DNA of 58,979 nt from Methanothrix sp. GTDB taxonomy: Archaea > Halobacteriota > Methanosarcinia > Methanotrichales > Methanotrichaceae. Under the pieces are notes generated by a model. That model searched no databases. It was not told the DNA's origin and worked only from the letters and a program-made list of their open reading frames with translations. This document shows, piece after piece, positions 6,757-24,529 of the stretch (position 1 is its first letter; each line of letters opens with the position of its first letter). The DNA lies in assembly GCA_040770465.1 (NCBI GenBank), contig JAXGJB010000013.1, positions 1 through 58,979 of the forward strand, given 5' to 3'. The position numbers were made by a program, and so were the translations under genes.

Positions 6757-9700
6757 ATGAAATCGATTTTGAGACCTCTGGGGCTTGGCCTAGTCATCAT
6801 GCTCTTCGTTGCCGGGGCCGGGGTGGCTCAGGACTTCCCCCTGGCGAGGGATGATCCCGTCATCAGGAACGCTGTCAGCTACCTTTTATCGTGCCAGAAC
6901 GAGGACGGCGGGTTCGGAAACGAGCCTGAAGCCGGGGCGAGCAGCATCGTCACGACCGCCGATGCCGCCTGTGCCCTCGCCTCCACCGGCGACCTCGGCC
7001 GCGCCAGAGAGGGCGGCAAGACCCCCCTCGACTACCTGGTCGCAAACCCGCCCGACGAGAACGCCACCGGCGGGAGCATCGGTCGGTACGTGATGGGAAT
7101 CGTCGCTGCCGGGGGAGACCCCCGAGACGTATCGGGGACCGACTACGTGGAGCGGCTGAAAGATCTCGCAAAGCCGCCTCGCGGCGAGGAGAACCTCTTC
7201 TCCGAGTCCTACATCCTCCTGGGGCTTGCCGCAGCAGGCGAGTCCGGGTCAGCGGAGGCACAGGCCTTCGTCACCTACCTGAGAGGCAAGAGCTCTCCCA
7301 GCGGCGGCTGGGGGTGGGGCGGCGGGGCCCCCCCGGACCTGGACACCACCGGGATCGCCACAATCGCCCTCCTGGCAGCGGGTGAGGACCCAAACTCGCC
7401 GTTGATCCAGGACGCGATCGCTTACATCAGGAGCCAGCAGAGCGATGACGGCGGCTTCGTCTCCTCAGGGATGAGCGCCGACTCCAACTCCATCAGCGAC
7501 GGCTGGGCGATGATGGCCTCAAACGCCGCCGGCGTCAACCCCGCTGAATGGCGGAAGGGGACAGCGACCCCCGCCTCCCACCTTCTGAGCTGCCAGCAGG
7601 AGAGCGGCGTCTTCTGGTGGAAGCCCGATTCCCAGGGTGGCACCGGGTTTCTCGTCGAGGAGACCTCCTTCAGCATCATCGCCCTCTTGGGCAATAGCAT
7701 CCCCATCACCGCCGCCGCGCCCCGTGAAGAAGGAGAGGGCGCCACCGTCACCGTCACCGTCCTCGGGGACGGCGACCTCCTCTTCAGCCGCGACCTAGAG
7801 GTCGAGGCCGAGAGCTTTGTAAAAGATGGCTTTGAGGTCAATAACCCCACAGTCCTGGGGGCGCTCGCGGCGACGGGGCTCACCTATTCCCTCGACGACC
7901 CCGAGGGGAAGGGAAGCCCTGCCGTCTCTGACCTGGAGGGGTATGGGGCTCCCATCTACTTCGTCGACGGGGTGAGACAAAACGACCCCATCGGCGAGCA
8001 GAACCTGACGGGCGACGAGTGCGTAGTGATAAGCGCTCCATCCACTGTTCTGCCGCTCCGAATTACCGCGCCGGAAGAAGTCGTGGAAGGGACGGCTTTC
8101 ACCATCGAGGTCGCCTCAGAGGATCTGGATGATCGGGGTCTCATCGTATCAGCCGAGGTGGAGGGAGCGACGGTAACGCTGAAGTCGGCCACCTTCTTCG
8201 CCGATTTCACCACTGACAACGATGGCAAAACCCCTGAGATCACCCTCAACGAGACAGGTGAGTACTGGGTCGAGGCCAAAAAAGATGGATACATTTCCAC
8301 ATTTTATCTGAACTGCGAGTACCAGGTCATAGACTGCCTGAGTCGCGAGACTGTTACAACCACCATTCACGTTCTAAGTTACGGAAACCCGGTCTTCAGC
8401 GGCGAGGTAGAGGTGCCGGCCGCCAAGTTCCAGAAAGACGGTATCTGGATCGACAACCCGTCTGCTTTGGGTGCTTTAGAGGAAACTGGGGTTGATTATT
8501 CCATAACGGATTACGGTTGGGGTGTCGCAGTGACAGCCCTAGCGGGTGTTAATGGATGGCCTGCATTTTACGCCCAAGGTAGCATGTCCTCGTTGGGGTT
8601 TGCCAGCTACAGCCTCACCGGAGGAGAGTGGCTTGCAGTCACTATTCCAGATATCCAAACTGTACCAGTGCTCTTCATGAGTGTTCCCAGCGATGTTGAA
8701 GTTGGGACGCCCTTCTATATCACGGTTGAAGAAGAGTATTATGGTGCTGGATATGCGGTTTTAAGGAGACCTTCTGTAGGTGCGAAAGCCATCATTGAAG
8801 GTGCCGGCACTTACGTCACCAATGCGACTGGAGTCGCCTCAGTAACGCTCAATGAGGCTGGCGAGTACAAAGCGAAGGCTGAAAAAAGTGGTTGCGTTGG
8901 AACGTATTACATAGTTCCTGGAGGCTACCACATCATAACTGCAACCGGCGAAATCAGCGGCGAACTGATCGTTACAAAGAGAGCATCGAGGGACTCTGCA
9001 AAGCCTGGCGAAAAACTGAGCTATCTAATAAAGATTTGCAACGACGGTGACGAAACATTGACTGATGTCAATGTAACGGATGTCCTTCAGAGTGGTTCAA
9101 CTTTATCTCTAGTCTATATTGATTGGATGGGGGTTTATGTACCGGAGACCAACCCCGCCCCAGATAAAATTGTTGGAAATGAGCTTGAGTGGAACTTCGA
9201 TAAGATAGAACCCGGCGATTGCAAAGATATCATCCTGGTGGTGAATGTTTCTAAGGATAGGCCCTCAGGCTATGAGCTTGAGAACTGCGTCGACTTAGAG
9301 GCCCTCAACCAATCCCAAGCTCGGATCACTGCTACAGACTGCGATGATGTCTTCATCGGCGAAAGAAGCCCTCTCGTCGTCACCAAGACCGCCGACAAAA
9401 AATCTGCAGAGCGGGGCAAGAAGGTCAAATACACAATAGAGGTATGCAACAATTACCCCGATGTCATGTACGACGTGAAGGTAAAAGACGTATTCAGTCA
9501 TTATGTGGAGTTCGTCTTTGCAGATCCAGCACCCACCCAGGAATACGGCGAGGGAGATCGTCTCAGTGATGTCGCCTGGACCTTTAGTTCGATCGAACCC
9601 GATACTTGTGAGGAGATTACTTTAGAAGTGCTCGTACCCGAGATGCAGGACTTCGAGTTCGGGATGGAGCAGAGCGTGATGGGCGAGGGATTCGTCAATG

Positions 9701-11760
9701 TCGCCAACGACTATTCGACGACATCTCCGAACTACAACCTCAATAACGTCGTCTTTGTCGAGGCCTTCAACCGCACCGGAGAGCTTTTCGAAGCATCGGC
9801 CAGCGCGAACGTCGAGGTGACCGACCCCGGAACCGAGCTCTCGACCCGGGAGCACGGGAGCGGCAGCTACGACAGCGAGGAGCTTGTGACGGTGAAGACC
9901 GAGGACAAGTCCATCGAGATGGCAAAGGACGTCTCGGCGACCTACGCCACCACCAGCCTCGGCCTCTACAACAATCGATCCGTCGCCTTCTCTTCGAGGT
10001 GGACCGAGACGGCCAGCGGAAAAAACAGGATCACCGGCACCACCATGAGTGAGGCCTATCGGTACGCCACATCCATCGACCGGGACTCTCACTTCAAGCT
10101 CGATGAGACGGGCACCTCCATGGCCTTCGAGTCGGAGTTCGATGGGATGGGAAGCTTCAGGGTATTCCAGAAGCCCACCGACGAGGGCGACCCAGCCGAC
10201 TTCGAATCCGAGGAGACCTACTCGGGGAGCTTCAAGGTATACCAGGTCGCCAGCGGTTCGAGCATGAGGTACGAGAAGGCGGCCTCGGGGACGGGGTCGG
10301 TCGCAGCCGACAAAAGGATCGGAGACGAACAGAGGTCCTACGAGTCGGGGTCCGGCGCCTACGAATCCGACGAGATCATCGAGGCTGCGACCGACTACAT
10401 CGCAAAGGAGATCAGCCTTGAGAGCAGGCCGACGAGCCTCGACCTCGGAGGCGATCTATTCTTCAACAACTCGGGCAAGTGGAAGGAGGGAATCTGGTCG
10501 AAGAACGAGAGCGAGAACAAAACAACCTTCATCGGCGAGGAGTTCTCAAGCCTCGACCGCCTCGATAAGGAGACGATCGTCAGGGGGCTGGGAGACGTGG
10601 CGACCGAGGCCGAGTTCTCCGGGACGGGCCGGTTCAGGGTGATCTCCGTCGACACCAGCACCAACGAGTCGGAGAACGAGTCTGTCAACCGCTCGATAAA
10701 ACGGCTCCGAGATGCAGAGATCGAGATCGACGACCTCTACTCCGGCGACTACTCGATCGCGAGGAGGACCGTCTTCGCCGGCGACTTCGAGTACGACGAG
10801 CCCCACCTCTCGGCCGAGAAGTCCGGCGAGATCTTCTATTCGGATGACGCCATCCTAGCGCGCTACAACATAACCCTGAAAAACGACGGCAACCGGGCCC
10901 TCGGGCCCCTGGCCATAAGAGACCTCTTCCCGCCGGGGGCGGAGTTTGTCAACGCCTCGGAGAGGACGGCGAGCCTCTCATCCGACGGCGCCGAGTGGAC
11001 CTATGCGAACCTGGGGCTCGGCGACGCTCTCAGCATCACGCTGTGGCTTGACGTCACCGACTGCCGCACAGATGAGATCGTCAACAGGATCGAGGCCACA
11101 GGCGGCTTCAACGGAAACGTCGTCACTGCCGCCGCCTTCTATGCCCTCCAGACCGACTGGCTGAGCTGGATCGACGACGCGTCGGTGACGGCGACGAAGT
11201 TCGCCAAGGTGGACGAGAACGATCCGAGGATCGTCACCTACACCCTCACCGTCCAGAACCTCGACGAAGAGACCAAGGTCGCCACGGTCGCCGACATCCT
11301 CCCGGAGGGGATGAGGTTCATCGACTCCTCGCCGAAGCCCTCCTCCGTCGACGGAAACGTCGTCACCTGGACCCTGATAGACATCGGCCCATACGAGGCC
11401 GAGACGATCGTCTACGGAGCCGAGGCCCTCAGGAGCGGGAGGTTCTTCAACCGGGCCGTGGTGGACGCGCGGTCCGTCAACGGGTCTGTCACGCCGCCGG
11501 TCTATGCCAGCTCCGTCATCGAGATCGCCGAGTTTGAGGGCGAGGGCGAGCTTCCCCAACCGATCTGGCAGCCCCCTGACTGGGGCTTCGAGTATTTGTA
11601 CTACTCAAACAACCTCACCTGCGAGGAGATAGTCAACCTGACGGCGCCACCGGAAACGGCTGAGAGGGGCAACGACCTCTGGACCGGCGAGGCAAAGGAC
11701 ATCCCTGGGGCCTCCGAGGACAGCGGAGGATTAGGACGGTTCCATCTGGTGGAAGGCTGA
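6757..11760 (+). CDS. large secreted cell-surface protein: prenyltransferase/squalene-oxidase-repeat alpha/alpha barrel, DUF4430-like/Ig-like modules, DUF11 repeats
   Basis: signal peptide; repeated L.S.Q..DGGF/GGW motifs; two T/SxLGAL...FYV.G modules; several VTK.A...G..YTI.V.N DUF11 motifs. Confidence 0.8.
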   Translation: MKSILRPLGLGLVIMLFVAGAGVAQDFPLARDDPVIRNAVSYLLSCQNEDGGFGNEPEAGASSIVTTADAACALASTGDLGRAREGGKTPLDYLVANPPDENATGGSIGRYVMGIVAAGGDPRDVSGTDYVERLKDLAKPPRGEENLFSESYILLGLAAAGESGSAEAQAFVTYLRGKSSPSGGWGWGGGAPPDLDTTGIATIALLAAGEDPNSPLIQDAIAYIRSQQSDDGGFVSSGMSADSNSISDGWAMMASNAAGVNPAEWRKGTATPASHLLSCQQESGVFWWKPDSQGGTGFLVEETSFSIIALLGNSIPITAAAPREEGEGATVTVTVLGDGDLLFSRDLEVEAESFVKDGFEVNNPTVLGALAATGLTYSLDDPEGKGSPAVSDLEGYGAPIYFVDGVRQNDPIGEQNLTGDECVVISAPSTVLPLRITAPEEVVEGTAFTIEVASEDLDDRGLIVSAEVEGATVTLKSATFFADFTTDNDGKTPEITLNETGEYWVEAKKDGYISTFYLNCEYQVIDCLSRETVTTTIHVLSYGNPVFSGEVEVPAAKFQKDGIWIDNPSALGALEETGVDYSITDYGWGVAVTALAGVNGWPAFYAQGSMSSLGFASYSLTGGEWLAVTIPDIQTVPVLFMSVPSDVEVGTPFYITVEEEYYGAGYAVLRRPSVGAKAIIEGAGTYVTNATGVASVTLNEAGEYKAKAEKSGCVGTYYIVPGGYHIITATGEISGELIVTKRASRDSAKPGEKLSYLIKICNDGDETLTDVNVTDVLQSGSTLSLVYIDWMGVYVPETNPAPDKIVGNELEWNFDKIEPGDCKDIILVVNVSKDRPSGYELENCVDLEALNQSQARITATDCDDVFIGERSPLVVTKTADKKSAERGKKVKYTIEVCNNYPDVMYDVKVKDVFSHYVEFVFADPAPTQEYGEGDRLSDVAWTFSSIEPDTCEEITLEVLVPEMQDFEFGMEQSVMGEGFVNVANDYSTTSPNYNLNNVVFVEAFNRTGELFEASASANVEVTDPGTELSTREHGSGSYDSEELVTVKTEDKSIEMAKDVSATYATTSLGLYNNRSVAFSSRWTETASGKNRITGTTMSEAYRYATSIDRDSHFKLDETGTSMAFESEFDGMGSFRVFQKPTDEGDPADFESEETYSGSFKVYQVASGSSMRYEKAASGTGSVAADKRIGDEQRSYESGSGAYESDEIIEAATDYIAKEISLESRPTSLDLGGDLFFNNSGKWKEGIWSKNESENKTTFIGEEFSSLDRLDKETIVRGLGDVATEAEFSGTGRFRVISVDTSTNESENESVNRSIKRLRDAEIEIDDLYSGDYSIARRTVFAGDFEYDEPHLSAEKSGEIFYSDDAILARYNITLKNDGNRALGPLAIRDLFPPGAEFVNASERTASLSSDGAEWTYANLGLGDALSITLWLDVTDCRTDEIVNRIEATGGFNGNVVTAAAFYALQTDWLSWIDDASVTATKFAKVDENDPRIVTYTLTVQNLDEETKVATVADILPEGMRFIDSSPKPSSVDGNVVTWTLIDIGPYEAETIVYGAEALRSGRFFNRAVVDARSVNGSVTPPVYASSVIEIAEFEGEGELPQPIWQPPDWGFEYLYYSNNLTCEEIVNLTAPPETAERGNDLWTGEAKDIPGASEDSGGLGRFHLVEG

Positions 11761-11963: not shown

Positions 11964-12671
11964 TCAACATGCGGCCGTCTCGTGGGCCTCCGCCTCTTCG
12001 GTCCCTGCCATGCTCATCGTCACCGTCTGTCCCTGCTCCAGAACGAACTTCTCAACGGTGACATCTGCGGGCTCACCGTCGACCGTGAACATCCACCAGG
12101 TTCCTTCCTCATCGTAGTTGGAGATCACGCCGTCGATCCCGACGACCAGGGTTCCCCACTCCATCTCCTCGGTTTCGAGATCGGTCGTCTCGTTGAGAAG
12201 GTCGAGCGCAGTGGACCCTTCCGCCATCTCGGCGTGCTCAGCCTTGTCGATGATCCCGTCTCCCTCGTAGTCAACTTCCAGGACGACGGTTATGTACCCC
12301 TCCTCGACGCCAGCGAGGGACATGGAGACGACGTCTCCATCCATCAGCACGTAGCTGTCCACTGTGACGTCAGCCTGTTCTCCGTTGACGTCGAAGGCCC
12401 ACCAGGTGCCTTCATCCTCCCAGTTGGCCATAACGCCGTCGATCCCGACGACCAGACCTCCGAATTCCGTCTCCTCGACATCCACCTCTGAGACGGCATC
12501 CAGCAGATCTAAGGCTGTAGAGCCATCAGCCATCGTCTCTTCGGTCATCACATCCGCCACGCCGTCGCCGTCGTAGTCGACCTCCAACGTCGCGGTTATA
12601 TCCTCGGCCGCCGCTGCATAGACCAGCAAAAAAGTCAAGGCAGCCACCAGAACTGCGCATCTCATCTTCAC
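11964..12671 (-). CDS. secreted protein with two DUF4430 (transcobalamin beta-domain-like) repeats
   Basis: signal peptide; two copies of GSTALDLL...LVVGIDGV...WW.F.V.G....V..YVL.DG. Confidence 0.85.
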   Translation of the reverse strand: MKMRCAVLVAALTFLLVYAAAAEDITATLEVDYDGDGVADVMTEETMADGSTALDLLDAVSEVDVEETEFGGLVVGIDGVMANWEDEGTWWAFDVNGEQADVTVDSYVLMDGDVVSMSLAGVEEGYITVVLEVDYEGDGIIDKAEHAEMAEGSTALDLLNETTDLETEEMEWGTLVVGIDGVISNYDEEGTWWMFTVDGEPADVTVEKFVLEQGQTVTMSMAGTEEAEAHETAAC

Positions 12672-12946
12672 GATTTTTCAGCTCCTCAAGTTGAAACCAT
12701 TAAGCAGGTAAAGTTAACCTAAATATAGATAACTTTTTCGGCTCATCAATTATGTCTGCGATAATGAAGATCTATCATCAAAAGAATTGATGGTCATAGC
12801 CCGCTACAAAGATTAATCAAACTAGTTTTAGTTAAATCCAATAAAGATTATATCATATGCCAGACCACCCCAACTCAAGGAAGCCGAAGACCAGTCGGAC
12901 TTCCGGGCCGCAGTCGATTGATATGCCGACTGCCGGATAGTGAGAG

Positions 12947-13237
12947 ATGAAAAAAGGTGATAATATGGCAGAAGAAAGCAGGAAGGCTGTTAAGCTGGGT
13001 GATCTGAACAGTTTTCTCTCTGAAAGGGAGATCCGATCTATTGAGGGCCTCTCCATCGAGGGCGATATCGAGATCGAGGTGGATACTGGCGGAATGGACG
13101 CGGGACCTATCCTCGCGACCAGTTTAGGCCAGGAGATCGTCAATACCGCGATCCAGCTTCTCAACTTCTCCAAAGCTCTGGGATATCCGGCCGACAACCT
13201 TTTGATGCCTGGCCAAGCGGTCCCGCCGAAAAAATAG
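12947..13237 (+). CDS. small hypothetical protein
   Basis: 96-aa ORF; AGGTGA SD before the internal ATG at 12965; no family recognised. Confidence 0.6.
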   Translation: MKKGDNMAEESRKAVKLGDLNSFLSEREIRSIEGLSIEGDIEIEVDTGGMDAGPILATSLGQEIVNTAIQLLNFSKALGYPADNLLMPGQAVPPKK

Positions 13238-13310
13238 CTGAGCATGAGCGTTGAGCAGAGCAACGCAGCGCCATCTTCGGAATGGAGAAGGGCGAGGTCG
13301 CGGCCGAATC

Positions 13311-13979: not shown

Positions 13980-15290
13980 GTGCAGGTCTTGGTCTTTATG
14001 GGTGCACGATATACGAAGTTTCTCAATTGCTCGCTCATCTCAATTTTGATCGTCATCGGCTGGGCTATCGCGGCGGATTGGCCCAGTTTCCAGGGGGACG
14101 AGACCAACTCGGGGCTGACCACCGACGATCTGCCCACCGATCCACGGGTCCTTTGGTCGGTCGATCTTCAGCGGATCGACGTCACCCCGATAGTCGCCTC
14201 AGACCAGGTCTACGTCCTAGCAGACAACGGCACCCTCTGGGCTCTGGACAAGGTGACCGGTGACGCGACGTGGACGGCTCAAATGGATGGATGGGTCTTC
14301 CAAACCTCCACCCCGGCCGTCTCCGGAGGTAGGATCTTCGCGGCTACGGATTCGGGGGATCTCGCGGCCTTCGACGCCCATACCGGCGAGGAGGTCTGGA
14401 CCCGTCACCTCACCGACAGGAGGTTCGAGGCCCCCATCGCTTGCTCAGACGGGCTGATCTACCTCGGAGAGGGGAGCGGATACGGCCGGGGTGAGAAGCG
14501 CTACTTCTGCTTCGACGCGGATGGAAACGAGATCTGGAACCATTCCCGGGATACGACCGGCTACATGTGGTGCGGCGCCGCCGTCGCCGGGGGTTATCTC
14601 GTCTTTGGCGGAAATGACGGCTGCCTTCTCTCTGTCAATAGGACGACCGGCGACATCTCAGACCTCCTGAACCTATCCGACACATCGAGGATCGGATTTG
14701 CGACGCCAGACCCCGGCCGAATCCGGGCTTCGGTCTCCTACGACAACGGCTCAGTCCGCGCGACATCCGAGTTCTCGGCCGATCGGGGCTATGCCTGGAA
14801 GGTCGGGTTCGACGAGGACGAGGGAACCTTCGAGAACAGAGGCTGGAGATCTCTCGTGGGGTTCAGCACATCAACTCCCGCCGTCTATGGCGGCAGGGTA
14901 TACCTCGGAGTCGGCGAGCACGGATATCCCGGGGCTCTGACCTGCCTCGACGACTCCACCGGCGAGGTGATCTGGACGTATCCCGTCGAGGCGGGCGTTA
15001 AGTCCTCGCCGGTGATCTCTTCGGCGGGAGGAGATCCCCGAATAGTATTCACCGCCTCCAGGGTCAACGGCTCCGTCTACTGCGTCGAGGACGCCGGAGT
15101 CGAGCCTCGCCTCGTCTGGCGGTTCGACCCGCCGGATGACGGCTACATCCTCGCCGGAGCCGCGGCCTCTGACGGGCGGGTATACTTCGGAACCGAGAAG
15201 GGCATACTTTACTGCCTCTCTGATGACCAGGCCGAACCGTCCGAAAATGAGACAAAAACGATAGAAATTGGCGGAGGTTATCCAAAATGA
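13980..15290 (+). CDS. secreted PQQ-binding-like (BamB-type) beta-propeller protein
   Basis: signal peptide, DWPSFQGD, repeated STPAV..G.VY and ALD..TG...W blades; start may be the ATG at 13998. Confidence 0.88.
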   Translation: MQVLVFMGARYTKFLNCSLISILIVIGWAIAADWPSFQGDETNSGLTTDDLPTDPRVLWSVDLQRIDVTPIVASDQVYVLADNGTLWALDKVTGDATWTAQMDGWVFQTSTPAVSGGRIFAATDSGDLAAFDAHTGEEVWTRHLTDRRFEAPIACSDGLIYLGEGSGYGRGEKRYFCFDADGNEIWNHSRDTTGYMWCGAAVAGGYLVFGGNDGCLLSVNRTTGDISDLLNLSDTSRIGFATPDPGRIRASVSYDNGSVRATSEFSADRGYAWKVGFDEDEGTFENRGWRSLVGFSTSTPAVYGGRVYLGVGEHGYPGALTCLDDSTGEVIWTYPVEAGVKSSPVISSAGGDPRIVFTASRVNGSVYCVEDAGVEPRLVWRFDPPDDGYILAGAAASDGRVYFGTEKGILYCLSDDQAEPSENETKTIEIGGGYPK

Positions 15291-16531
15291 AAACTGAGCT
15301 ACTATCAGGATTTGTCGCTATCATCCTTATCTTTTCGGCATTGACCGCGCCCGCGCTCTGCGACGAATCGACCGATTTCGGTCCGGAGGGAAGCGTTGGT
15401 GCCGGCTGGCAGCAGTTCCACAATGACCCTCAACATAGAGGCGCGTCTTCCTCGGCTGCTCCGAGGACGAACGAGACCGTCTGGGCGAGGGAGATCGGAG
15501 CCCAGGCCGGATCTTCCGTCAGCGTCGCCGAGGGGAGGGTCTTCGTCAACTGCGTCGACGAGATCGTCGCCCTCGACCAGCTCACTGGAGAGACCCTCTG
15601 GACTGCGCCCTTCGAGAGGAACGCTGACGTCTGCTGCTCCTGGTTCACTCCAGTCTACAATGACAGCAGGCTCTTCTTCTCGGGGATGAAGACCGTCTGT
15701 CTCAACGCCGCCAACGGCGAGGAGATCTGGAGCTTCATACCTCCTTCGGGACGGGGCGCTGTCGACGGAAGCCCTGCGGTTGTTGACGGGAAGGTCGTCG
15801 CCAGCGACTGGGACGGCTCCCACTACCGCTGCCTCGATGAGATGACCGGGGATTTGATCTGGAACTTTTCGGTCGAGGGATCTGCCCAGTCCACCCCCGC
15901 CGTTGCCAACGGCGGAGTCGTCTTCGGGTCCTGGGAGTGGGGACTTGGCGGGCGAATTTACTGCGCCGACCTCGAAATAGGTAGCGAGATCTGGTCTATT
16001 CAAACGGAGAACTCACCTTGCGGATCTGCAGCCATAAACGACGGCACCGTCTACATGACCACCTACAACTTCAACGGCGACGGCGACCTTCTCGCCCTCT
16101 CCCTATCAAACGGGTCGATCCTCTGGAGAAAGGAGATCTCGCCGACCGATTCGACCCCCACCATCGCCGGAGGGAAGGTCTACGTCTGCGGTGGGGTGGA
16201 GGGCTTCAGCTCCTCGAAGACCTACTGCTTCGACGCCTCCACCGGCGACCTCCTCTGGGAGACGGACGAGGCCGACAAGATCGGTGACTGGAGATGCTCG
16301 ATGGCTTATGCCGACGGCCTCGTCTTCGCCGGACGCCCAGACTTCGACGACTTCGGAGGAAACTTCGCCCTCGACGCTTCCACCGGCGAGGTGGTCTGGA
16401 GCCATCCTGGAGGCGGGTCCTCACCGGCCGTCGCCGACGGGATGGTCTTCACCGTCGGGAAGGGGACGGTCTATGCCTTCGGCGGCGCGGCCGAGACAGA
16501 CGGGGCCGAGACAGAGGAGATGATCCCGTGA
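15287..16531 (+). CDS. secreted PQQ-binding-like beta-propeller protein
   Basis: signal peptide, WQQFHND, repeated SP/TP and D..TG...W blades. Confidence 0.88.
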   Translation: MKTELLSGFVAIILIFSALTAPALCDESTDFGPEGSVGAGWQQFHNDPQHRGASSSAAPRTNETVWAREIGAQAGSSVSVAEGRVFVNCVDEIVALDQLTGETLWTAPFERNADVCCSWFTPVYNDSRLFFSGMKTVCLNAANGEEIWSFIPPSGRGAVDGSPAVVDGKVVASDWDGSHYRCLDEMTGDLIWNFSVEGSAQSTPAVANGGVVFGSWEWGLGGRIYCADLEIGSEIWSIQTENSPCGSAAINDGTVYMTTYNFNGDGDLLALSLSNGSILWRKEISPTDSTPTIAGGKVYVCGGVEGFSSSKTYCFDASTGDLLWETDEADKIGDWRCSMAYADGLVFAGRPDFDDFGGNFALDASTGEVVWSHPGGGSSPAVADGMVFTVGKGTVYAFGGAAETDGAETEEMIP

Positions 16532-18048
16532 TCCGACGGCTCAGCCTCCTCCTGATCTGCCTCATCCTCGCCTCAGCGATCGATCCTGCCTTCGGGGACC
16601 ATCTGACATTTCGGGGCGACGCCCAGAGAACCGGAAACGTCAGCGGGACCGGCCCCTCAAGCCCCGACCTTCTCTGGAAAGAGAAGCTGACGGCCAAGGG
16701 CTACATAGGGGCGAGCGCCGCGGTTTGGAGGGAGATGGTCTACGTCTCCTCATGGCCCGACATGTCCTACAAGGGCGAGCAGGCCCTCGGCTGCTTCAAC
16801 GCCGAGGACGGATCGGTCCTCTGGCAAAACCCCATCGGTGGAAAGGGCGGAGCCTCGACCCCCGCCGTCTCCGGCGGCCTGATATTTGCAGGCTCCTTTA
16901 ATGGCGATCTCTACTGTCTGGACGCTGAAACCGGCGAGACCGTCTGGAACCGGACGGTCGAGAAGGACCCTCAATGGTGGGGCGTTGCATCGTCGCCTCT
17001 GGTTATCGGGAATAGGATATTTGTCACCACCTTCTCCGAGGGGACCCTGCACGTCCTGGACCTCGAAGGGGGCGAGCTCTGGAACATAACAACCGGAAAG
17101 ATCGATCCGTATACATCGCCTGCCGGAGCCGACGGACGGGTCTACTTTGCTGGAGGGGACCCAGCTCTCTATTGTCTGGACGCCTCTTCGTTTGAGCTCC
17201 TCTGGAAACTTCCAACGGACGCCCCCATAACCTCGACGCCGGCGATCGAAGGGAGGAGAGTCTACTTCGCGACGACCGAGGCTCTCTGCGCGGTGGACGC
17301 CGAAACGGGCGAGGAGGTCTGGAGCGCGCCCCTCAGGGGCACCACTTCATCTCCGGCATTATCCTCCGGCCGGGTCTACATCGGAACCGACGATGCCCAT
17401 CTGGAATGCTTCAACGCATCGGACGGATATTCCATCTGGAGCGCCGAGGTCGATAGCTCCGTCAAGTCCTCGCCCCTCGTGGTGGGAGACCGGGTCTATT
17501 TCGGATCTTACAAAGGCGTCGTCTATGCCCTCAACTGCTCGGACGGCTCGGAGGCGTGGACCTACGATACCGGAGCCTACATGATGGCCTCACCCTCCTT
17601 CTCTGATGGGGTCCTGTACATCGGCTCCGACGACGGATGTCTGTACGCCTTCGGAGAGGGGGCCACCAAGGTGATCTTCGAGGGCGAGGTCCTCCTCGGC
17701 GACGGCAGATTCAACGCGACCGCGGATGGGGGCAACGTCCGCGCGGTCGGTGAGAGGACCGCCCTCGGCGCCCTGATGAAGGCTTCTGAGATGGGAGGGT
17801 TCAACATAACCTTCGACGATTCCGTGGTGGACGATTACGGCCTTCTGGTGGGATCGATCGACGGCATCGAGCCTGGGGACGGAAAGGTCTGGATGTACTG
17901 GGTGAACTATCCGGACGAGCCGATCCCCACGGTGGGACCCGACCGCTTCCCCCTGGAGGAGGGCGACGTCGTCGCCTTCTACCTCGGAGATAGAAGCAGT
18001 AGCCCCGAGGAGTCGCTCAGGGTGGAGATAACTACTGGATGGGAGTGA
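16528..18048 (+). CDS. secreted PQQ-like beta-propeller with a C-terminal DUF4430-like domain
   Basis: GTG start overlapping the upstream stop; signal peptide; SSP blades; C-terminal TALGAL...SIDGI...WMYWVN...LEEGDVV. Confidence 0.85.
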   Translation: MIRRLSLLLICLILASAIDPAFGDHLTFRGDAQRTGNVSGTGPSSPDLLWKEKLTAKGYIGASAAVWREMVYVSSWPDMSYKGEQALGCFNAEDGSVLWQNPIGGKGGASTPAVSGGLIFAGSFNGDLYCLDAETGETVWNRTVEKDPQWWGVASSPLVIGNRIFVTTFSEGTLHVLDLEGGELWNITTGKIDPYTSPAGADGRVYFAGGDPALYCLDASSFELLWKLPTDAPITSTPAIEGRRVYFATTEALCAVDAETGEEVWSAPLRGTTSSPALSSGRVYIGTDDAHLECFNASDGYSIWSAEVDSSVKSSPLVVGDRVYFGSYKGVVYALNCSDGSEAWTYDTGAYMMASPSFSDGVLYIGSDDGCLYAFGEGATKVIFEGEVLLGDGRFNATADGGNVRAVGERTALGALMKASEMGGFNITFDDSVVDDYGLLVGSIDGIEPGDGKVWMYWVNYPDEPIPTVGPDRFPLEEGDVVAFYLGDRSSSPEESLRVEITTGWE

Positions 18049-18106: not shown

Positions 18107-21100
18107 ATGAGGATCTCTGCCCTCATATTGCTCGTACTACTCTTGATGATCGTCCCCGCCCTGGGAGATTCCGGGCCTGGTCTCTCCGAAGGAGAGGCGA
18201 CAGAAGATTCTATTGATCTGATCTGGGATGGCGTTGTCGTCCTCACCGGGGGAGAGATCAACATATCAGGCAGCAGCGGTGATCTTCATGCCATCGCGGA
18301 AAAGTCGGCTCTCGGAGCCCTCATCAAAGCCTCAGAAGCCGGCGGGTTTGAGCTCGAACTCGACTCGTCCCTCTGGGCGATCCGAGGTCCCGTCGTGGAG
18401 TCGATCGGAGGAGTGGACGCCACGGAGAACAGATCCTGGAGGTACGTGGTCAACTATCCCGAGGACGCCATCCCCATCGCCGGTCCCGACCAGTTCCTCC
18501 TCAAAGATGGGGACAACCTCACCTTCTACCTGGGAGATCGACACGCTCTGCCCGACGAATCTCCCCGGGTGAACATAATAACGGCAAGGACCATTACAAG
18601 GAGGCCGGAGGCCCTCTTCATCGCCGCAGAGAACCACGCGGTGATCGAAGAATCGTCGAAGGACGCTGTTCTGAACGTCACCCTCGCGTTCGTGGAGACG
18701 GCCCCTTCGAACTTCTCGGGCTACGACCTGATATTCCTGGAGATGGTGGGAAGCGATGGCGCCACAAAGCTATTGCCCCTGCTGGAGGCGCCGAAGGAGG
18801 CGGGCGTCCCGGTGATCTCGATCCACTCGGAGGGGTACGACGACCTCCTCGGAAACGTCGAGATCGAGGACCATCCCGATATCGAGGAGTACTGGAACTA
18901 CGGCGGCACCGCGAACATGGAAGGGCTCTATTCGTACCTCGAAAGAACCTTCTTGGGCCTCGACGTCCCCGTGAGCGCGCCCGTTCCGACGCCTCGGGCC
19001 TACATCTGCCATCCGGACTCGCCAGACCTATTTCTGAACACCACATCTTACCTCCAGTGGTATCGGAACCATTCCGGCCACAGGTACGACGAGGGGGCGC
19101 CTACTATAGGCGTGATGAACCTGGCCGGCGATCCCGTCACCTCATCGATGAGATCTGCCATCGTCAGGGCTCTGGAGTCGAAGGGGGCCAACGTCATCGA
19201 CATCGGATTTGAGAACACCTCCGCGATCAATGAGTTCTTCATCTTGAACGGTTCGACGATAGTCGATGCCGCAATCCTCACCAAGCCCTTCAGGCTGAAC
19301 TACGGCGACCCCGAGGAGGGGATCGAGGACCTGGAGGCGCTGAAAGTCCCCGTCCTCAACGCCATGAAGCTCTGGTACCAGACCCCTGAGGAGTGGAGAA
19401 ACAGCACCGGCCTATTCCCAACGGAGCTCTACTTCAAGATCGCAATGCCTGAGATGGACGCTGTCATCGAGCCGATGATGATAGCTGGAAGGACCGAGTC
19501 GGGAACCTTCGATCCCGTCCCAGGCCAGATCGAGTGGCTGGCGGATAGGGCGATCGCCTGGGCAGAGCTCGGCCGAAAGCCGAACGCTGAGAAGAAGGCG
19601 GCAATCATATACTACAACCACGGCGGAGGAAAGGACAACCTTGGCGCGACTTACATAAACGTCCCCCGGAGCCTCCAGGTGATCCTCGACGGGCTGAACG
19701 ACTCAGGCTACGGCGTGGAGGGGACGGTCCCCGACGAGCGGGACCTCGTCGATCTGATGGCCCACGAGGGGACGAACGTCGGCACCTGGGCTCCCGGAGA
19801 GCTGGAGTCGATGGTCAGAGCAGGAAACGCGACCCTCATCCCGGTGGCCGATTACCTGGAGTGGTTCTCAGAGATCGACCCCGAAATGCAGCGGGAGGTG
19901 ACGGATATGTGGGGTCCGCCCCCCGGGGAGATCATGGTCTACGAGAACGAGACTGGAAAGTACTTCGTCATCCCCAAGCTATCATTTGGAAACGTCATCC
20001 TCGCCCCCCAGCCGACGAGAGGATGGCTCCAGAACAGCACCGTCCTCTACCACAACAAGGACATACCGCCCCACCATCAGTACATCGCCTTCTACCTCTG
20101 GCTCAGGAAGGGGTTCGATGCCGACTTCATCGTCCACCTCGGCAAGCACGGCACCCAGGAGTGGACCCCCGGCAAGGAGAGCGGGATTTCCCGCGACCAG
20201 TGCTGGCCTGGCATACTGATCCAGGACCTTCCCGTGATCTACCCCTACATCGTCGACAACATCGCCGAGGGGTCTCAGGCGAAGAGGAGGGGCGACGCCG
20301 TGATGATAACCCACCTGACGCCGCCGATAGTCGCATCCGGCCTCTACGGCAACTTCACAAACCTCGCCGAGACCGCCTTCAACTACAACCACGTCGAGAA
20401 CGCCTCCGTCAAAGCCCTCTACGGAGATGAGATCGTAGCCCGGTGCCAAGAGCTGCACCTCGACGAGGATCTGGGCAAAAACCTGAGCGAGCTATCCGGG
20501 GACCCGGAGGCCTTCGACGGGTTCGTCGGCGAGCTTGAGCACTACCTCTACGACCTTAAGAACGAGTTCATGCCCTACGGCCTCCACACCTTTGCTACGC
20601 CTCCGGAGGGAAGGCCCCGTCTGGAGATGGTACAATCGATGCTCGGCGACGACTACAAGAGAGAGGTTGCCTTCATGATCTCCTACGACGATTACCCGAA
20701 CCCCTCAAGGCTCGACAAGGAGCGGGAGCTCGATAACGCCACCCTCGCCCTCCTGGCGGCGGTCATCGACGACGGGAGGAGCCCCGATTTGGCACAGGTG
20801 GAGATCTTCTCCAACCTTACGGGCGCTGGAACGGTCAATGCATCGGAGAAACTGACGGCGCTCCTCGCCCTCGCCCTCTCCTATTCACAGGGGCTCGACG
20901 CCTCCATCGAGGAGGTTCCGAGGTTCATAAACGCATCGGAGTCGGAGTACAATCCGCCATCGCCTGCAGACGATCCCATAAGAGACCCCAACGTCCTGCC
21001 GACGGGGAGGAACTTCCATTCGATCAGCCCGAGGATGGTCCCCACCCCTGCAGCCTGGGAGGTGGGGTCGGACCTGGCCGAGGAGCTGATCGAGGTCTAT

Positions 21101-22609
21101 CGGGCCGAGCACAACGGGACGTACCCGAGAAAGCTAGCCATCGTCCTCTGGGCCTGGGCCACCACCGACCACGGAGTCGTCGAGGCTGAGATCCTGAAGC
21201 TGGTGGGGGCGGAGCCGGTCTGGGACTCTTACGGCGGCGTCTCCGACGTCAGGCTCATCCCCCTCTCGGAGCTCGGAAGGCCCCGGATCGACGTGGTGGT
21301 CGTCCCATCGGGGCTTCATCGGGACCTCTTCCCCGAGAAGCTGAAGCTCATCGATCGGGCGATCCGGCTTGCTGCCAACGACTCTGCGACCGACTATCCC
21401 AACTACGTGAGGGAGAACTCCGAGATGATCCGGTCGGAGCTTCTGGCGACTGGAAACTACTCCGAGGAGGATGCCGAATTTCTCTCCGTCAGCAGGATAT
21501 TTCTTGAGGCCGCCGGGACCTACGGCCCGAACCTCGAGGGCCCCGTATCTGCAAGCGACACCTGGGAGAACGATTCGAAGCTTGGAGACCTCTTCATCGA
21601 TCGGATGTCCTACATCTATGGCGACGAGGTCTGGGGGAGCAAGACGGCCTCCGGGAAGGACTACGGCAGCGTCCAGACCGACGTATACCGCCGTAACCTC
21701 GCCGATGTGGAGTCGGCGGTCCACCACACCAACTCGAACCTCTACGGCTTCATCGATAACGACGACGTCTACCAGTACGTCGGCGGGATCTCCATGGCCG
21801 TCAGGACCGTATCCGGCGAAGCTCCCGACCTCTACGTCACCGACGTGAGGGCCAAGGGCGAGAAGGGCAAGGTCGAGAACCTCAAAAGCTTCTTTTCAAG
21901 GGAGCTTCGGTCCCGCTACTACAACCCCAAATGGATCGAGGGGATGAAGGGGCAGGGCTACTCCGGAGCGAGGGAGATGGACAAGTTCGTCGAGTACCTC
22001 TGGGGCTGGGACGTCACCGTCCCCGACCTCGTGACCGAGACGATGTGGAACGAGGCCTACGACGTCTACGTCAACGACAAGTATGAGATGGGCCTCAAAG
22101 AGTTCTTCGACGAGAACAACCCCTACGCCTATCAGGTCGTGACAGCGAGGATGCTGGAGGCGTCGAGGAAAGGGTACTGGCACCCCACCGACGAGATGAA
22201 AGAGAATCTTGCCGAGGAGTTCGAGGAGTCGGAGACCAAGTATGGCGTCACATGCTGCCACCACACCTGCGGAAACCTTCTCCTCCGGGAGTACATGGAG
22301 GGGATCCTCACCGGGACCGAGCCGACGGAGGCGACCGGCAAGAGCACGAGCAAGGGCGGAGGGTCCAGCAGGCATCCCTACCCAGCAGACTCAGGCTCCT
22401 CAAACCAGACCAGGGCCTCGGGGGTTGGGGTGACGGGCGATGAAAAGCCGGTCGAATCCGAATCGGTTCAGGGTGAGGTTTCTGGATTCGTCATGGAGAA
22501 CGTGGCGGAAAAGAGCAGCGTGCCATCGATATCGGGAGCGCCTTTGATGGGGATCATCCTCGTGCTGTTCATCCTGATCGTCATCGGTGCCGGGTTCAGG
22601 AGGAGGTAA
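18107..22609 (+). CDS. CobN/magnesium-chelatase H family protein, secreted and C-terminally membrane anchored, with an N-terminal DUF4430-like domain (HmuS/BtuS-like)
   Basis: PPHHQYIAFY, HLGKHGTQEW.PGK, EGSQAKRR, LPTGRNF, RPRIDV, NPKWIEGM..GYSGA motifs; signal peptide; CCHHTCGN; TM + RRR at the C-terminus. Confidence 0.9.
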   Translation: MRISALILLVLLLMIVPALGDSGPGLSEGEATEDSIDLIWDGVVVLTGGEINISGSSGDLHAIAEKSALGALIKASEAGGFELELDSSLWAIRGPVVESIGGVDATENRSWRYVVNYPEDAIPIAGPDQFLLKDGDNLTFYLGDRHALPDESPRVNIITARTITRRPEALFIAAENHAVIEESSKDAVLNVTLAFVETAPSNFSGYDLIFLEMVGSDGATKLLPLLEAPKEAGVPVISIHSEGYDDLLGNVEIEDHPDIEEYWNYGGTANMEGLYSYLERTFLGLDVPVSAPVPTPRAYICHPDSPDLFLNTTSYLQWYRNHSGHRYDEGAPTIGVMNLAGDPVTSSMRSAIVRALESKGANVIDIGFENTSAINEFFILNGSTIVDAAILTKPFRLNYGDPEEGIEDLEALKVPVLNAMKLWYQTPEEWRNSTGLFPTELYFKIAMPEMDAVIEPMMIAGRTESGTFDPVPGQIEWLADRAIAWAELGRKPNAEKKAAIIYYNHGGGKDNLGATYINVPRSLQVILDGLNDSGYGVEGTVPDERDLVDLMAHEGTNVGTWAPGELESMVRAGNATLIPVADYLEWFSEIDPEMQREVTDMWGPPPGEIMVYENETGKYFVIPKLSFGNVILAPQPTRGWLQNSTVLYHNKDIPPHHQYIAFYLWLRKGFDADFIVHLGKHGTQEWTPGKESGISRDQCWPGILIQDLPVIYPYIVDNIAEGSQAKRRGDAVMITHLTPPIVASGLYGNFTNLAETAFNYNHVENASVKALYGDEIVARCQELHLDEDLGKNLSELSGDPEAFDGFVGELEHYLYDLKNEFMPYGLHTFATPPEGRPRLEMVQSMLGDDYKREVAFMISYDDYPNPSRLDKERELDNATLALLAAVIDDGRSPDLAQVEIFSNLTGAGTVNASEKLTALLALALSYSQGLDASIEEVPRFINASESEYNPPSPADDPIRDPNVLPTGRNFHSISPRMVPTPAAWEVGSDLAEELIEVYRAEHNGTYPRKLAIVLWAWATTDHGVVEAEILKLVGAEPVWDSYGGVSDVRLIPLSELGRPRIDVVVVPSGLHRDLFPEKLKLIDRAIRLAANDSATDYPNYVRENSEMIRSELLATGNYSEEDAEFLSVSRIFLEAAGTYGPNLEGPVSASDTWENDSKLGDLFIDRMSYIYGDEVWGSKTASGKDYGSVQTDVYRRNLADVESAVHHTNSNLYGFIDNDDVYQYVGGISMAVRTVSGEAPDLYVTDVRAKGEKGKVENLKSFFSRELRSRYYNPKWIEGMKGQGYSGAREMDKFVEYLWGWDVTVPDLVTETMWNEAYDVYVNDKYEMGLKEFFDENNPYAYQVVTARMLEASRKGYWHPTDEMKENLAEEFEESETKYGVTCCHHTCGNLLLREYMEGILTGTEPTEATGKSTSKGGGSSRHPYPADSGSSNQTRASGVGVTGDEKPVESESVQGEVSGFVMENVAEKSSVPSISGAPLMGIILVLFILIVIGAGFRRR

Positions 22610-22818: not shown

Positions 22819-23511
22819 GTGTCGTCCTTGGATTTATCGTGGCTTGCCGCTTCTGGAATTATGGTCGGGATCATCATATTCGCGCTGAAGGTCAGCCTGG
22901 GGTGCGGGCTTGCGAGCCTCAGTCGGAAAGAGACCCTCTGCATCGCAACGCTGTACCTCGCCCTCTCGCTGGTCATGGGCCTCGTCGTCGGGCTTTTGCC
23001 CGAAGGCGCCCTCAGCTCGGTTATGAGCATGGGCGTCGCGATGCACCTGGTCATCGCCCTCCTCCTGGTGGCGATGGGAGTTGCCACCGCGCGGGAGTGG
23101 AACCGGCACGGCCGCGACCTATCCCGAAAGACCTTCTGGGTTTTATCCGTCCCCTGTCCGGCCTGTCTTGCCGCCACCTTCCTATCCTGCAGCGCCCTTG
23201 CGGGCCTCTTGGACGTCTCCGGCTGGAAGGTTGGATCTTTCGTGGGGCTCGTATTCTTCGTCTCCATCGCAGTCTTCTCATCCACCGTCGGAAGGGCGCG
23301 GAGGGCTCCATCAGCTCTTGGGAACGCCATGATATTCGTGGGGCTCTTTTACATCCTCTCCATTCTTCTCATCCCCGCCTACCTCAAGACCCAGGCGACC
23401 CCCTTCGCCCCCATAACCGTCCCCGCCTCCGACCTCTTCACCTCCTACTTCTTCATCCTCGGGCTGGTCGGCCTCGGCTTTGTCGGCAGGAGGATGGGGG
23501 TATTTCAGTGA
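22819..23511 (+). CDS. DUF2162 family putative membrane transporter (HmuT-like)
   Basis: multi-TM, conserved PCPAC motif, position after the cobN-like gene. Confidence 0.8.
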   Translation: MSSLDLSWLAASGIMVGIIIFALKVSLGCGLASLSRKETLCIATLYLALSLVMGLVVGLLPEGALSSVMSMGVAMHLVIALLLVAMGVATAREWNRHGRDLSRKTFWVLSVPCPACLAATFLSCSALAGLLDVSGWKVGSFVGLVFFVSIAVFSSTVGRARRAPSALGNAMIFVGLFYILSILLIPAYLKTQATPFAPITVPASDLFTSYFFILGLVGLGFVGRRMGVFQ

Positions 23512-24170
23512 GCGTCTACGTCGAGATCGTCAACGTCCTCTACGTATTCTCGACGGCGCTCCTCTACCCGGTGATCCTGGCGCTCCTCCTCCTCTTCGGA
23601 TGGTCCCTCGCGCTTCTCGGCTCCCTGACATCCGAGTACACCTCCCGCCGAAGAGACCTCGAAGAGCTGGAGAGGGCGTGCTCTGAGGCCTCCGAGATGG
23701 CGAGATCGGGGCGGGGGGATCTCGCCTGCCCTCTTGTTGAAGGATACAGGGCCCACCCCAGGGTCTCAAAGGCTCTGGCAGAGGCGGCCTCATCCCTCGG
23801 AGGCGAAGGCTTTGCGGCGAGGATTGAGAAGGCGCTGCAGGATGCGGAGCTTGGAATGGCGAAGGCCCTGGAGCCGATAAAGATCGGGGTGAGGGTGGGT
23901 CCGATGTTGGGGCTGATGGGAACCCTCATTCCCATGGGGCCCGCTCTGATCGGCCTCTCCCAGGGCAACATCCAGCAGATGGCCGACAACCTTGTCATCG
24001 CCTTCTCGACGACGGTGATCGGCCTTGCCGTCGGCGGGATCTGCTACGGGGTCTACGTTATCAGAAACCGGTGGTACCAGCAGGACCTCAGCGACCTCGA
24101 GTATGCGGCGGAGCTTTTGAAGAGCGGAAAGAAAGCGCCCGGCGGCGAACGAAGCGAGGGCAGCGGATGA
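23508..24170 (+). CDS. MotA/TolQ/ExbB proton channel family protein (HmuU-like)
   Basis: GPMLGLMGTLIPMGPAL...AFSTTVIGL; GTG start overlapping the upstream stop. Confidence 0.9.
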   Translation: MSVYVEIVNVLYVFSTALLYPVILALLLLFGWSLALLGSLTSEYTSRRRDLEELERACSEASEMARSGRGDLACPLVEGYRAHPRVSKALAEAASSLGGEGFAARIEKALQDAELGMAKALEPIKIGVRVGPMLGLMGTLIPMGPALIGLSQGNIQQMADNLVIAFSTTVIGLAVGGICYGVYVIRNRWYQQDLSDLEYAAELLKSGKKAPGGERSEGSG

Positions 24171-24529
24171 GCCGGATCGGGAGGGCTGGGCGATCCAGGC
24201 TGGGGATGCTGAGCGACTCCGAGGACGACCCCCTGAGCGGGGTTGCCAACCTCTTCGACGCGGCCATGGTCTTCGCCATCGCCCTCCTCCTCACCCTGGT
24301 GATCTCCTACAACATCCCGGAGCTTCTCACCCCAGAGGCGAGCGTCACCATCGTCAAGAACCCGGGCGACCCCAACATGCAGATCATAATAAAGAAAATG
24401 GACCAGATCCAGGTGCTTAACATGACCGACAAGGTCGCCGGGGGTCAGGGGACGAAGATGGGAACTGCCTACAGGCTCGAGAACGGGATGGTGGTCTACG
24501 TCCCGGAGAACGCAACATCTGCGGCTTAA
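24167..24529 (+). CDS. DUF2149 family protein (HmuV/ExbD-like)
   Basis: DPLSGVANLFDAAMVF...G.KMGTAYRLENG..VYVPE. Confidence 0.88.
   Translation: MSRIGRAGRSRLGMLSDSEDDPLSGVANLFDAAMVFAIALLLTLVISYNIPELLTPEASVTIVKNPGDPNMQIIIKKMDQIQVLNMTDKVAGGQGTKMGTAYRLENGMVVYVPENATSAA

Follow-up and report, generated by a model that had tools for sequence, protein, structure and literature searches.

The closest described relative of the locus studied here is the hmu operon of Bacteroidota (hmuYRSTUV), whose HmuS(TUV) haem dechelatase system is the only characterised member of this type of module. HmuS (PDB 9d26), characterised in 2025 (PMC12583661), is an exported, anchored class-I-chelatase-like enzyme with no adjacent AAA+ gene (PMC12583661, PMC10434189), and its gene is followed by genes for a membrane protein of ~230 aa, a MotA/ExbB protein and a DUF2149 protein. 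The first of these sources describes archaeal homologues of HmuS and CobN as numerous and without known role, and archaea as having no complete hmu operons. We analysed a stretch of 58,979 nt from Methanothrix sp. (contig JAXGJB010000013.1, positions 1 to 58,979, hereafter the window), in which a cluster of nine genes, A to I, at 6757-24529 has the same order of enzyme, membrane protein, MotA/ExbB and DUF2149 genes. The best explanation of the cluster is that it would be an archaeal, outer-membrane-free form of an exported CobN-like chelatase with a private MotA/ExbB-DUF2149 pair. Our best reading of its function, to which we give a probability of roughly 0.5, is a surface module that captures a metallo-tetrapyrrole, probably of corrinoid type, and removes its metal, driven by proton-motive force. 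No published description of the archaeal cluster was found in the paper listings and passages covered by our search; archaeal sequences may be placed in Fig. S4 of PMC6460266 and, for PMC12583661, in Dataset EV4 and Appendix Figs S11-S13.

The nine genes are as follows:

A, 6757..11760, + strand, 1667 aa: alpha/alpha toroid and DUF11/DUF7507 repeats (Pfam, NCBIfam).
B, 11964..12671, - strand, 235 aa: very acidic protein with two DUF4430 domains and a hydrophobic N-terminus.
C, 13980..15290, + strand, 436 aa: PQQ_2 beta-propeller (Pfam, 106 bits; hydropathy).
D, 15287..16531, + strand, 414 aa: PQQ_2 beta-propeller (Pfam, 134 bits; hydropathy).
E, 16528..18048, + strand: PQQ_2 beta-propeller (Pfam, 168 bits) with a C-terminal DUF4430-like module at 17821-17985.
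F, 18107..22609, + strand, 1500 aa: class-I-chelatase-like protein (CobN-Mg_chel, Pfam, 1122 bits).
G, 22819..23511, + strand, 230 aa: DUF2162 protein (PF09930) with 8 predicted helices (Pfam, 194 bits; cut-off 34.4).
H, 23508..24170, + strand: MotA/TolQ/ExbB family protein (MotA_ExbB, PF01618, 43.2 bits; cut-off 22.9).
I, 24167..24529, + strand, 120 aa: DUF2149 protein (Pfam, 112 bits).

The cluster is real: a first-pass annotation of the same DNA had placed these genes, and the open-reading-frame coordinates bear its positions out, with an alternative start for C possible at the ATG at 13998. The Pfam matches likewise agree with its three beta-propellers and with its DUF2162, MotA/ExbB and DUF2149 genes after the CobN-like gene. 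Overall, what that annotation observed was partly confirmed and what it made of the observations was partly supported. Overlaps of 4 nt join C to D, D to E, G to H and H to I, a pattern consistent with translational coupling within each of two blocks, C-D-E(-F) and G-H-I. The host genome is Methanothrix harundinacea-like, with F 85% identical to the CobN-like protein of Methanothrix harundinacea 6Ac, and the cluster holds all of its DUF4430 matches together with its sole CobN-family, DUF2149, DUF2162 and MotA_ExbB genes, the last of these being H.

We surveyed the surroundings of CobN-like genes at 77 loci from Methanotrichaceae, ANME-1, ANME-2, Syntrophoarchaeum, Archaeoglobaceae, Methanomicrobiales, Methanocellales and Methanosarcinaceae. 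The triple of DUF2162, MotA and DUF2149 genes was present in 34 of the 77 and partly present in 6 more; among the 26 loci flanked by 5 kb or more to either side, it was complete in 17, partial in 1 and missing from 8. The reverse survey started from DUF2149, a family present in 94 of the 301 genomes sampled from the phylum and in 8/8 of the window's family. At 40 places picked non-randomly across families, a MotA gene was found around DUF2149 in 39, a DUF2162 gene in 34 and a CobN-like gene within 9 kb in 29. Conserved linkage of the CobN-like gene with the three membrane-protein genes is therefore supported across many archaeal lineages. Several Methanosarcinaceae loci (L055, L063, L073, L077, L052) were seen to carry two to four tandem CobN-like genes by a single DUF2162-MotA-DUF2149 set, which suggests several enzymes of differing specificity on one membrane module. 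Locus L195 (G032:C1:149281-167559) has alpha/alpha-toroid and PQQ-propeller genes next to a MotA-DUF2149 pair, while neither a CobN-like gene nor a DUF2162 gene is found within 9 kb; judging from this arrangement, the motor may also serve surface binders alone. Extra MotA-DUF2149 pairs with neither DUF2162 nor CobN-like gene within 9 kb were observed at L166 and L169, in two genomes of family f2 that also have complete modules at other sites.

The linkage of the DUF4430 and propeller genes with the CobN-like gene, on whose conservation the first-pass annotation had made its reading depend, extends to fusion. In 18 loci we found 19 open frames in which a propeller, a DUF4430-like module and the chelatase are joined, and PQQ-type and CobN Pfam domains occur together in 35 of the 120 listed homologues of F (protein clusters; all counts of homologues below refer to these listed matches). 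The split arrangement of E and F in the window is the rarer state. Among the sequence evidence, this gene fusion is the strongest support for the idea that the putative binders feed the enzyme.

The class-I-chelatase-like body of F is essentially complete. It matches CobN-Mg_chel (PF02514) over profile positions 2-1089 of 1090 with 1122 bits, the domain lying at 18887-22198, and the following features were recognised in it:

DUF4430-like module of F, within 18167-18661, + strand: 17.8 bits, sub-threshold.
HLGKHG motif of F, 20135-20152, + strand: aa 677-682.
DNDDVYQYVGG motif of F, 21755-21787, + strand: CobN-type.
CCHHTCGN motif of F, 22253-22276, + strand: Cys/His cluster.

In the HLGKHG motif, H677, G679 and H681 are invariant among 16 aligned homologues; section 14 of PMC12583661 describes the HxG(T/A/K)HG motif with its catalytic His (His538 of HmuS) as kept superfamily-wide. 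The best solved relative of F is HmuS 9d26 (E 8e-155), with ChlH and CobN ranking behind. F shares with CobN of CobNST (PDB 7c6o, 9uk9) the six-domain CobN-Mg_chel architecture, HxGxHG and, in domain V, DxDDxYQ[FY]xGG: its DNDDVYQYVGG aligns to DSDDYYQFEGG in 9uk9 and to DSDDYFQYHGG in 7c6o, and on our own reading of these alignments the motif may be taken as CobN-defining. Unlike that CobN, F is predicted to be extracytoplasmic, has an extra C-terminal Cys/His motif and an anchor, has no adjacent CobS or CobT and belongs to a host on the anaerobic B12 route. It also falls under every cut-off of the NCBIfam CobN/BchH equivalogs, the best being NF004645 (1221.7 versus 1619), with TIGR02257 at 588 versus 822. 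A tree was built with FastTree (LG+gamma, columns of at least 70% occupancy, midpoint root for display only) from 53 sequences, a hand-chosen spread of the 120 homologues plus four gut-metagenome HmuS sequences, the remainder being omitted. It split 21 sequences without hydrophobic ends, of the cytoplasmic CobN/ChlH types, from 32 with them (SH-like support 0.999), and this exported branch contains HmuS and an archaeal group that includes F. A C-terminal extension with two aligned Cys is common to F and HmuS and takes the form of the invariant Cys/His cluster CCHHTCGN in the archaeal clade.

We also examined the predicted location of the proteins. A hydrophobic N-terminal segment was found by hydropathy in all six of A-F, and F ends in a transmembrane (TM) segment followed by RRR (22541-22606). 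F is strongly enriched in N-x-S/T sequons, with 26 observed against 7.8 expected from composition-matched shuffles (z 6.9; 0 of 1000 shuffles reached 26). Enrichment was also seen in A (z 3.2), C (z 5.3) and E (z 4.2) and in none of nine cytoplasmic proteins from the same window. Among the homologues, 75 of 120 carry CCHHTCGN; a C-terminal TM segment is present in all 75 and an N-terminal hydrophobic segment in 63, while hydrophobic ends occur in 0 of 28 canonical CobN/ChlH-type matches. Outward topology is thus a predicted property of the clade, beyond F alone. By prediction only (hydropathy, sequons, clade), F is extracytoplasmic and membrane-bound; the six secreted proteins and the outside-facing CobN-like protein of the first-pass annotation hold as predictions in the same sense. 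Unlike in HmuS, the anchor of F is C-terminal, after a cleavable-looking signal. Within the linker and anchor of F (22350-22606), motifs are kept even in homologues of 35-40% identity: V-x-G-[FY]-V-M-E or E-G-Y-E-M-T about 25 aa ahead of the TM segment, then P-S-x-S-G-x-P-L and G-F-[RK]-R. Their conservation hints that this segment is more than a passive anchor and makes a specific contact in the membrane or acts as a sorting signal; no NCBIfam CTERM model for an archaeosortase signal matched the tail at E<=0.01.

The membrane module G-H-I was compared with its bacterial counterpart. The first-pass annotation had matched the set to hmuSTUV, and homology supports this for the S, U and V components. 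In eight hmu loci from gut metagenomes, the hmuU products match H at E 1e-35 to 1e-37, and in the two of these loci where gene picking had retained the hmuV frame, the hmuV products match I at E 1e-26. With the exbB equivalog TIGR02797, H scores 15.8 bits against a cut-off of 206, and by these sequence comparisons H and I are far nearer to HmuU and HmuV than to generic ExbB. The match fails for the permease. HmuT and G are alike in size and gene position without sequence similarity: phmmer gave nothing at E<=10, hhalign gave a probability of 0.15%, and DUF2162 had no match in a Bacteroides control genome. The T component of the archaeal cluster thus appears from its sequence to belong to another family, one in which a Cys motif is conserved.

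In G, the residues K24, G28-C29, D100, P112-C113-P114 and C124 are invariant and H76 and C116 nearly so, the PCPAC motif being encoded at 23152-23166. This pattern suggests a soft-metal or thiol-active site within the membrane. Its structure model, a confident one (pLDDT 84), gave by VIA-align only middling values, with a best Z of 8.0 over 72 residues, with BbZIP at Z 7.0 (147 residues, rmsd 3.9) and DMT1 at Z 7.2 (191 residues, rmsd 7.1); a search of the protein atlas gave nothing over 0.81, and the homologue search returned only the names 'DUF2162' and 'predicted transporter'. I begins with a basic N-terminus and crosses the membrane in a single TM helix, which contains an invariant Asp (NLFD, 24248-24259); its outer domain is small and conserved. 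Across 28 archaeal and bacterial DUF2149 sequences, 23 columns are invariant, including the TM Asp. We call I 'ExbD-like' on the grounds of its topology, its TM Asp and its partnership with a MotA_ExbB protein; the DUF2149 structure model (mean pLDDT 60) was too poor for fold comparison. As in TonB-ExbB-ExbD and Tol-Pal, a MotA_ExbB channel protein is combined in tight gene coupling with a single-pass, N-in partner carrying an invariant TM Asp. Unlike those systems, the cluster has no TonB or TolA and its host no outer membrane, and the third component would be the anchor of the chelatase or DUF2162. No match to TonB_C or to a TonB-dependent receptor was found in the genome, which is 94.85% complete; this supports the first-pass annotation, which had spoken of a cell with no outer membrane or TonB receptor.

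The putative capture proteins A-E differ in how firmly they can be assigned. A has a signal-like N-terminus, an alpha/alpha-toroid domain at aa ~36-300 (squalene-cyclase/prenyltransferase-like), two unassigned modules, an Ig-like (CarboxypepD_reg-like) spacer and the DUF11/DUF7507 repeats. Its toroid matched only squalene cyclases and prenyltransferases among PDB sequences, and homologues of the toroid and mid-region adjoin propeller and CobN-like genes in loci L006, L008, L009, L011 and L015. B carries two copies of DUF4430 (12318-12524 and 12015-12218; 92.5 bits), a transcobalamin-C-terminal-like SLBB/beta-grasp domain, and matched PDB 3u7z at E 7e-4 and transcobalamin-1 at E 0.33. The scores of the E module (18.3 bits) and of the F N-terminus (17.8 bits) are both under the 23.8-bit Pfam cut-off of DUF4430 (PF14478). 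These two modules are homologous to one another (47% identity). Of 26 copies of the module collected in the window and at related loci, 19 gave a DUF4430 match at E<=0.01, the best being 2.5e-7; the profile of the modules found no transcobalamin or 3u7z match among PDB sequences at E<=1. The first-pass annotation had counted four DUF4430-bearing proteins. From these scores the domain is solid in B and sub-threshold but family-supported in E and F, and A drops out, with no Pfam match to DUF4430 at E<=1 and an hhalign probability of 5.9%.

In PMC1796856, DUF4430 is the transcobalamin C-terminal SLBB clade and a frequent partner of the alpha/alpha toroid, the two together sandwiching B12. The cluster resembles transcobalamin, intrinsic factor and the prokaryotic SLBB surface proteins treated there in its secreted DUF4430, its toroid partner, its Ig-like and propeller combinations and its paralogous SLBB proteins per operon (PMC1796856). 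Unlike in those systems, the toroid (A) and DUF4430 (B, E, F) are here on separate proteins, and instead of CbiO/CbiQ their linked or fused partners are a motor and a chelatase-like enzyme; CobN and chelatases have 0 occurrences in the text of PMC1796856. This array of DUF4430, propellers and toroid, which is fused to the enzyme in relatives, is also an addition compared with the hmu operon.

These domains bear on an alternative in which the whole corrinoid or a precursor is bound, handed over and imported by DUF2162 or another transporter with the help of the motor, without demetalation. Besides the transcobalamin-like domains and the toroid (PMC1796856), such salvage is favoured by late and salvage cbi steps in the neighbourhood of L032 (CobT-type DBI_PRT, CobQ, CbiA), by the invariant Cys of DUF2162, which could ligate cobalt, and by the finding that CobN shifts corrin between head/neck and body sites (bioRxiv 10.64898/2026.10.09.757910). 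However, the chelatase body is conserved in full, catalytic His motif included, which would be superfluous for a mere binding protein; the genome already has nine BtuF/FepB-type binding proteins, and DUF2162 is a small protein of 230 residues for which no relative with a known substrate was seen. We consider salvage without demetalation unlikely, at about one chance in a handful.

The gene contexts lean towards cobalt or nickel, not iron as for the hmu operon. At 7 of the 77 loci, each from the ANME-1/Syntrophoarchaeum group, the module directly adjoins genes of anaerobic cobalamin biosynthesis (TP_methylases, CbiG, CbiC, CbiD, CbiA/CobQ, CobT-type), and cobalamin genes also stand beside it at further places in the same families. 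NikR is divergently adjacent to the module in four loci of only two genera; the NikR of the host genome is encoded outside the window. When the transcobalamin-like modules and the CobN-type motif are considered as well, these contexts tentatively favour cobalt/corrinoid (or nickel) over haem iron. In bacteria, hmu relatives respond to iron (PMC10434189). Metal-status regulation is given as shared with the BtuS-type and Zur-regulated CobN-like operons, to which the cluster is likened by description (B. fragilis BtuS1/2, PMC6460266; P. aeruginosa PA1922-PA1925, PMC4542158). Those operons begin with a TonB-dependent receptor, unlike the archaeal cluster, which has surface binders instead.

Regulation by metals is also relevant to free-metal acquisition, in which the exported CobN-like protein would capture Ni, Co or Zn ions and DUF2162 would import them, no tetrapyrrole being involved. 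Cobalt transporters are common in cbi operons, and we count this for free-metal acquisition together with the NikR genes adjoining the operon in two genera, the Cys/His-rich CCHHTCGN and the intramembrane Cys motif of DUF2162. The DUF4430 structure 3u7z is titled 'putative metal binding protein', and the homologous Pseudomonas PA1922-PA1925 operon is Zur-regulated, with 45- to 147-fold induction on zinc depletion (PMC4542158). All characterised superfamily members, on the other hand, have tetrapyrrole substrates (PMC12583661), B12 binding is the role associated with the DUF4430 clade (PMC1796856), a six-domain enzyme of 1500 residues with a motor seems too elaborate for ion binding, and the organism has two CbiM systems. 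The uptake of free ions accordingly appears improbable to us, though worth keeping in mind. The adjacent cbi genes and the CobN-type rather than HmuS-type active-site motif would also suit an outward chelatase: outside the cell, F would charge a metal-free tetrapyrrole, used like a metallophore, with scarce Co or Ni from the environment, and the motor would replace the AAA+ driver. The export of a metal-free macrocycle is without evidence or precedent, and the transcobalamin-like capture modules are explained no better than by salvage, so that metal insertion outside the cell is very improbable.

Computation supports the family memberships, the predicted topology, the neighbourhood and fusion evidence, the cross-domain homology of S, U and V and the absence of Ton clients. 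Several points weigh against a surface demetalation module, the most general being that for the archaeal members it is a reading from sequence throughout. The residues that define HmuS are a second point. According to sections 14 and 21 of PMC12583661, HmuS is defined by the site-1 ligands Met79 and His254 and by LSLDHxxEFMGG. In a pairwise HMMER alignment Met79 corresponds to Val214 and His254 to Pro394 of F; this mapping rests on one alignment in which Met213 adjoins Val214, so that a one-residue shift is possible at the Met. His1209 and Glu1212 of HmuS are replaced in F by Asp1220 and Gln1223, and the motif LSLDHxxEFMGG by IDNDDVYQYVGG; among the 120 homologues the HmuS motif was found in P0091 only. 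As to the methionine-rich insertion of HmuS (PMC12583661), F contains 34 Met in all with at most 5 per 40 aa, compared with 67 and at most 7 in one gut-metagenome HmuS. Placement in the exported branch together with the missing ligands and motif puts F in that branch and outside the HmuS family sensu stricto, and the dechelatase chemistry is not simply transferable to F.

The same residues bear most directly on haem-iron harvesting exactly as by HmuS. HmuS being the best solved relative, the common C-terminal extension with its two aligned Cys and the homologous U and V genes are in favour of it, as is the behaviour of two 'BtuS' proteins of Methanosarcina barkeri, which vary with iron and sulfur source and are up under Fe(II)/Cys and FeS2 growth (PMC10846266). 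Since the HmuS ligands and LSLDHxxEFMGG are not conserved in F, the host has no TonB-dependent receptor of the HmuR type and no HmuY, for which no separate search was made, and no homology of DUF2162 to HmuT is detectable, and since the gene contexts lean towards Co or Ni, we regard haem harvesting as a poor candidate.

Further points against demetalation by a dedicated motor-driven enzyme come from the surveys, from regulation and from the genome. The eight well-flanked CobN-like loci without the triple are one, and the MotA-DUF2149 pairs with no CobN-like gene within 9 kb (11 of 40, some on short contigs) are another; these pairs indicate that the motor, although it usually adjoins the chelatase, is not exclusive to it. 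A scan with a NikR motif and a generic palindrome found no convincing NikR box upstream of the cluster in the window, and an Rfam scan of 5500-26500 found no riboswitch, only one sub-threshold chance match. The host genome has two CbiM-type Ni/Co systems besides its BtuF/FepB-type binding proteins, and with these the need for an extra route is not evident. The fold of G had no Foldseek match at E<=0.001 and no clear structural relative, and none of the 28 DUF2149 sequences matched the ExbD Pfam models at E<=1.

Finally, the first-pass annotation had stated that CobST is absent. This is correct for the window, but elsewhere, on contig C12 (6140-8598, minus strand), the genome has a ChlI-like AAA+ gene of 414 aa (TIGR02030 414 bits, under the cut-off of 467) with a 404-aa VWA-domain gene directly downstream. 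The pair is distant from the sole CobN-family gene, and it is the main loose end for the argument that F has no AAA+ partner. In view of this pair and of homologue records named 'cobaltochelatase subunit CobN', F could be thought an ordinary cytoplasmic CobN that works with the pair in cofactor biosynthesis. The signal-like N-terminus, C-terminal anchor and sequon enrichment of F, its place in the exported branch, its scores under the equivalog cut-offs, the fusion of relatives to secreted propeller modules and the use by archaea of the anaerobic CbiX/CbiK route (bioRxiv 10.64898/2026.10.09.757910) all speak against a cytoplasmic CobN, which we regard as scarcely credible.

It is quite likely that A-I act together as a single system that captures and processes a ligand outside the cytoplasm. 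In the surface demetalation module that we prefer, the DUF4430 modules (of B, E and the N-terminus of F), the toroid of A and the propellers C, D and E would take up a soluble metallo-tetrapyrrole, most likely corrinoid-type, between the membrane and the sheath. From sequence comparison, these putative capture modules are seen to co-evolve with the enzyme, up to fusion. The ligand would be handed to F, which is anchored, predicted to be glycosylated and outward-facing, for removal or, less likely, exchange of the metal. That the chemistry is demetalation of a Co or Ni tetrapyrrole is a tentative proposal, somewhat short of an even chance. H and I, with the TM Asp and ExbD-like topology of the latter, would supply proton-motive work to F or to its membrane partner, because no ATP or AAA+ partner would be able to reach F outside the cell. 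G, with its invariant intramembrane Cys, Asp and His, may import either the ligand or the soft metal set free from it (Co, Ni or perhaps Fe). For the cluster we thus infer that a tetrapyrrole is bound and dechelated and that the motor is coupled to this process. It is doubtful, if conceivable, that an ExbB/ExbD-type motor instead of an AAA+ ATPase drives an extracellular class-I-chelatase-type enzyme that harvests Co or Ni from environmental corrinoids or F430-type cofactors, caught by transcobalamin-like modules fused to it. Tetrapyrrole metalation or demetalation would then be mechanically powered across the membrane, and archaeal Ton-like motors would act directly on surface enzymes or binders in cells that have no outer membrane.

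Some further features of the window were observed. Between B and C, 1.3 kb (12672-13979) hold no confident gene; the G+C content falls to about 0.54, a 170-aa open reading frame on the - strand (12853-13365) has no Pfam match, and the gap may serve regulation or be what is left of a decayed gene. Metal-cofactor genes are abundant around the cluster. Upstream (neighbourhood 2456-5759) lies a PBP_like_2 solute-binding protein at 4809-5759. Downstream (26262-38893) is a formylmethanofuran-dehydrogenase-type cluster with FmdE, FdhD and molybdopterin subunits, and in this region a DUF364 'heavy-metal chelation' protein is encoded at 29827-30621. The host is a methanogen, and a TFX gene is found within the window as well as the formylmethanofuran-dehydrogenase-type genes. 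A type III CRISPR-Cas region at 41226-56433 includes RAMP proteins, a 929-aa protein without Pfam match, Csx3 (47739-48101), a PIN protein (44461-44889), a DDE transposase (45115-46050) and a Cas1 gene (41226-41921) that matches profile positions 106-282 only and may be truncated.

The exported CobN-like/HmuS kind of enzyme was already known; the window adds the fullest capture array among the loci seen, the evidence from fusion, a T component from another family with its own conserved Cys motif, and contexts that lean towards Co and Ni. Methanogens and methane-oxidising archaea have a high demand for Co and Ni tetrapyrroles (corrinoids, F430), and the sulfidic habitats in which they live offer little free metal. 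The cluster is a concrete candidate, with a surface enzyme, ligand-capture domains that are fused to it in relatives and a private proton-channel pair in common with bacterial systems. Homologues are present in genetically tractable Methanosarcina (P0054), which opens the question to experiment. If the motor serves the enzyme, then hmuU and hmuV of Bacteroidota, which are assumed to energise the outer-membrane receptor, would need rereading, and there would be a second way of powering class I chelatase chemistry.

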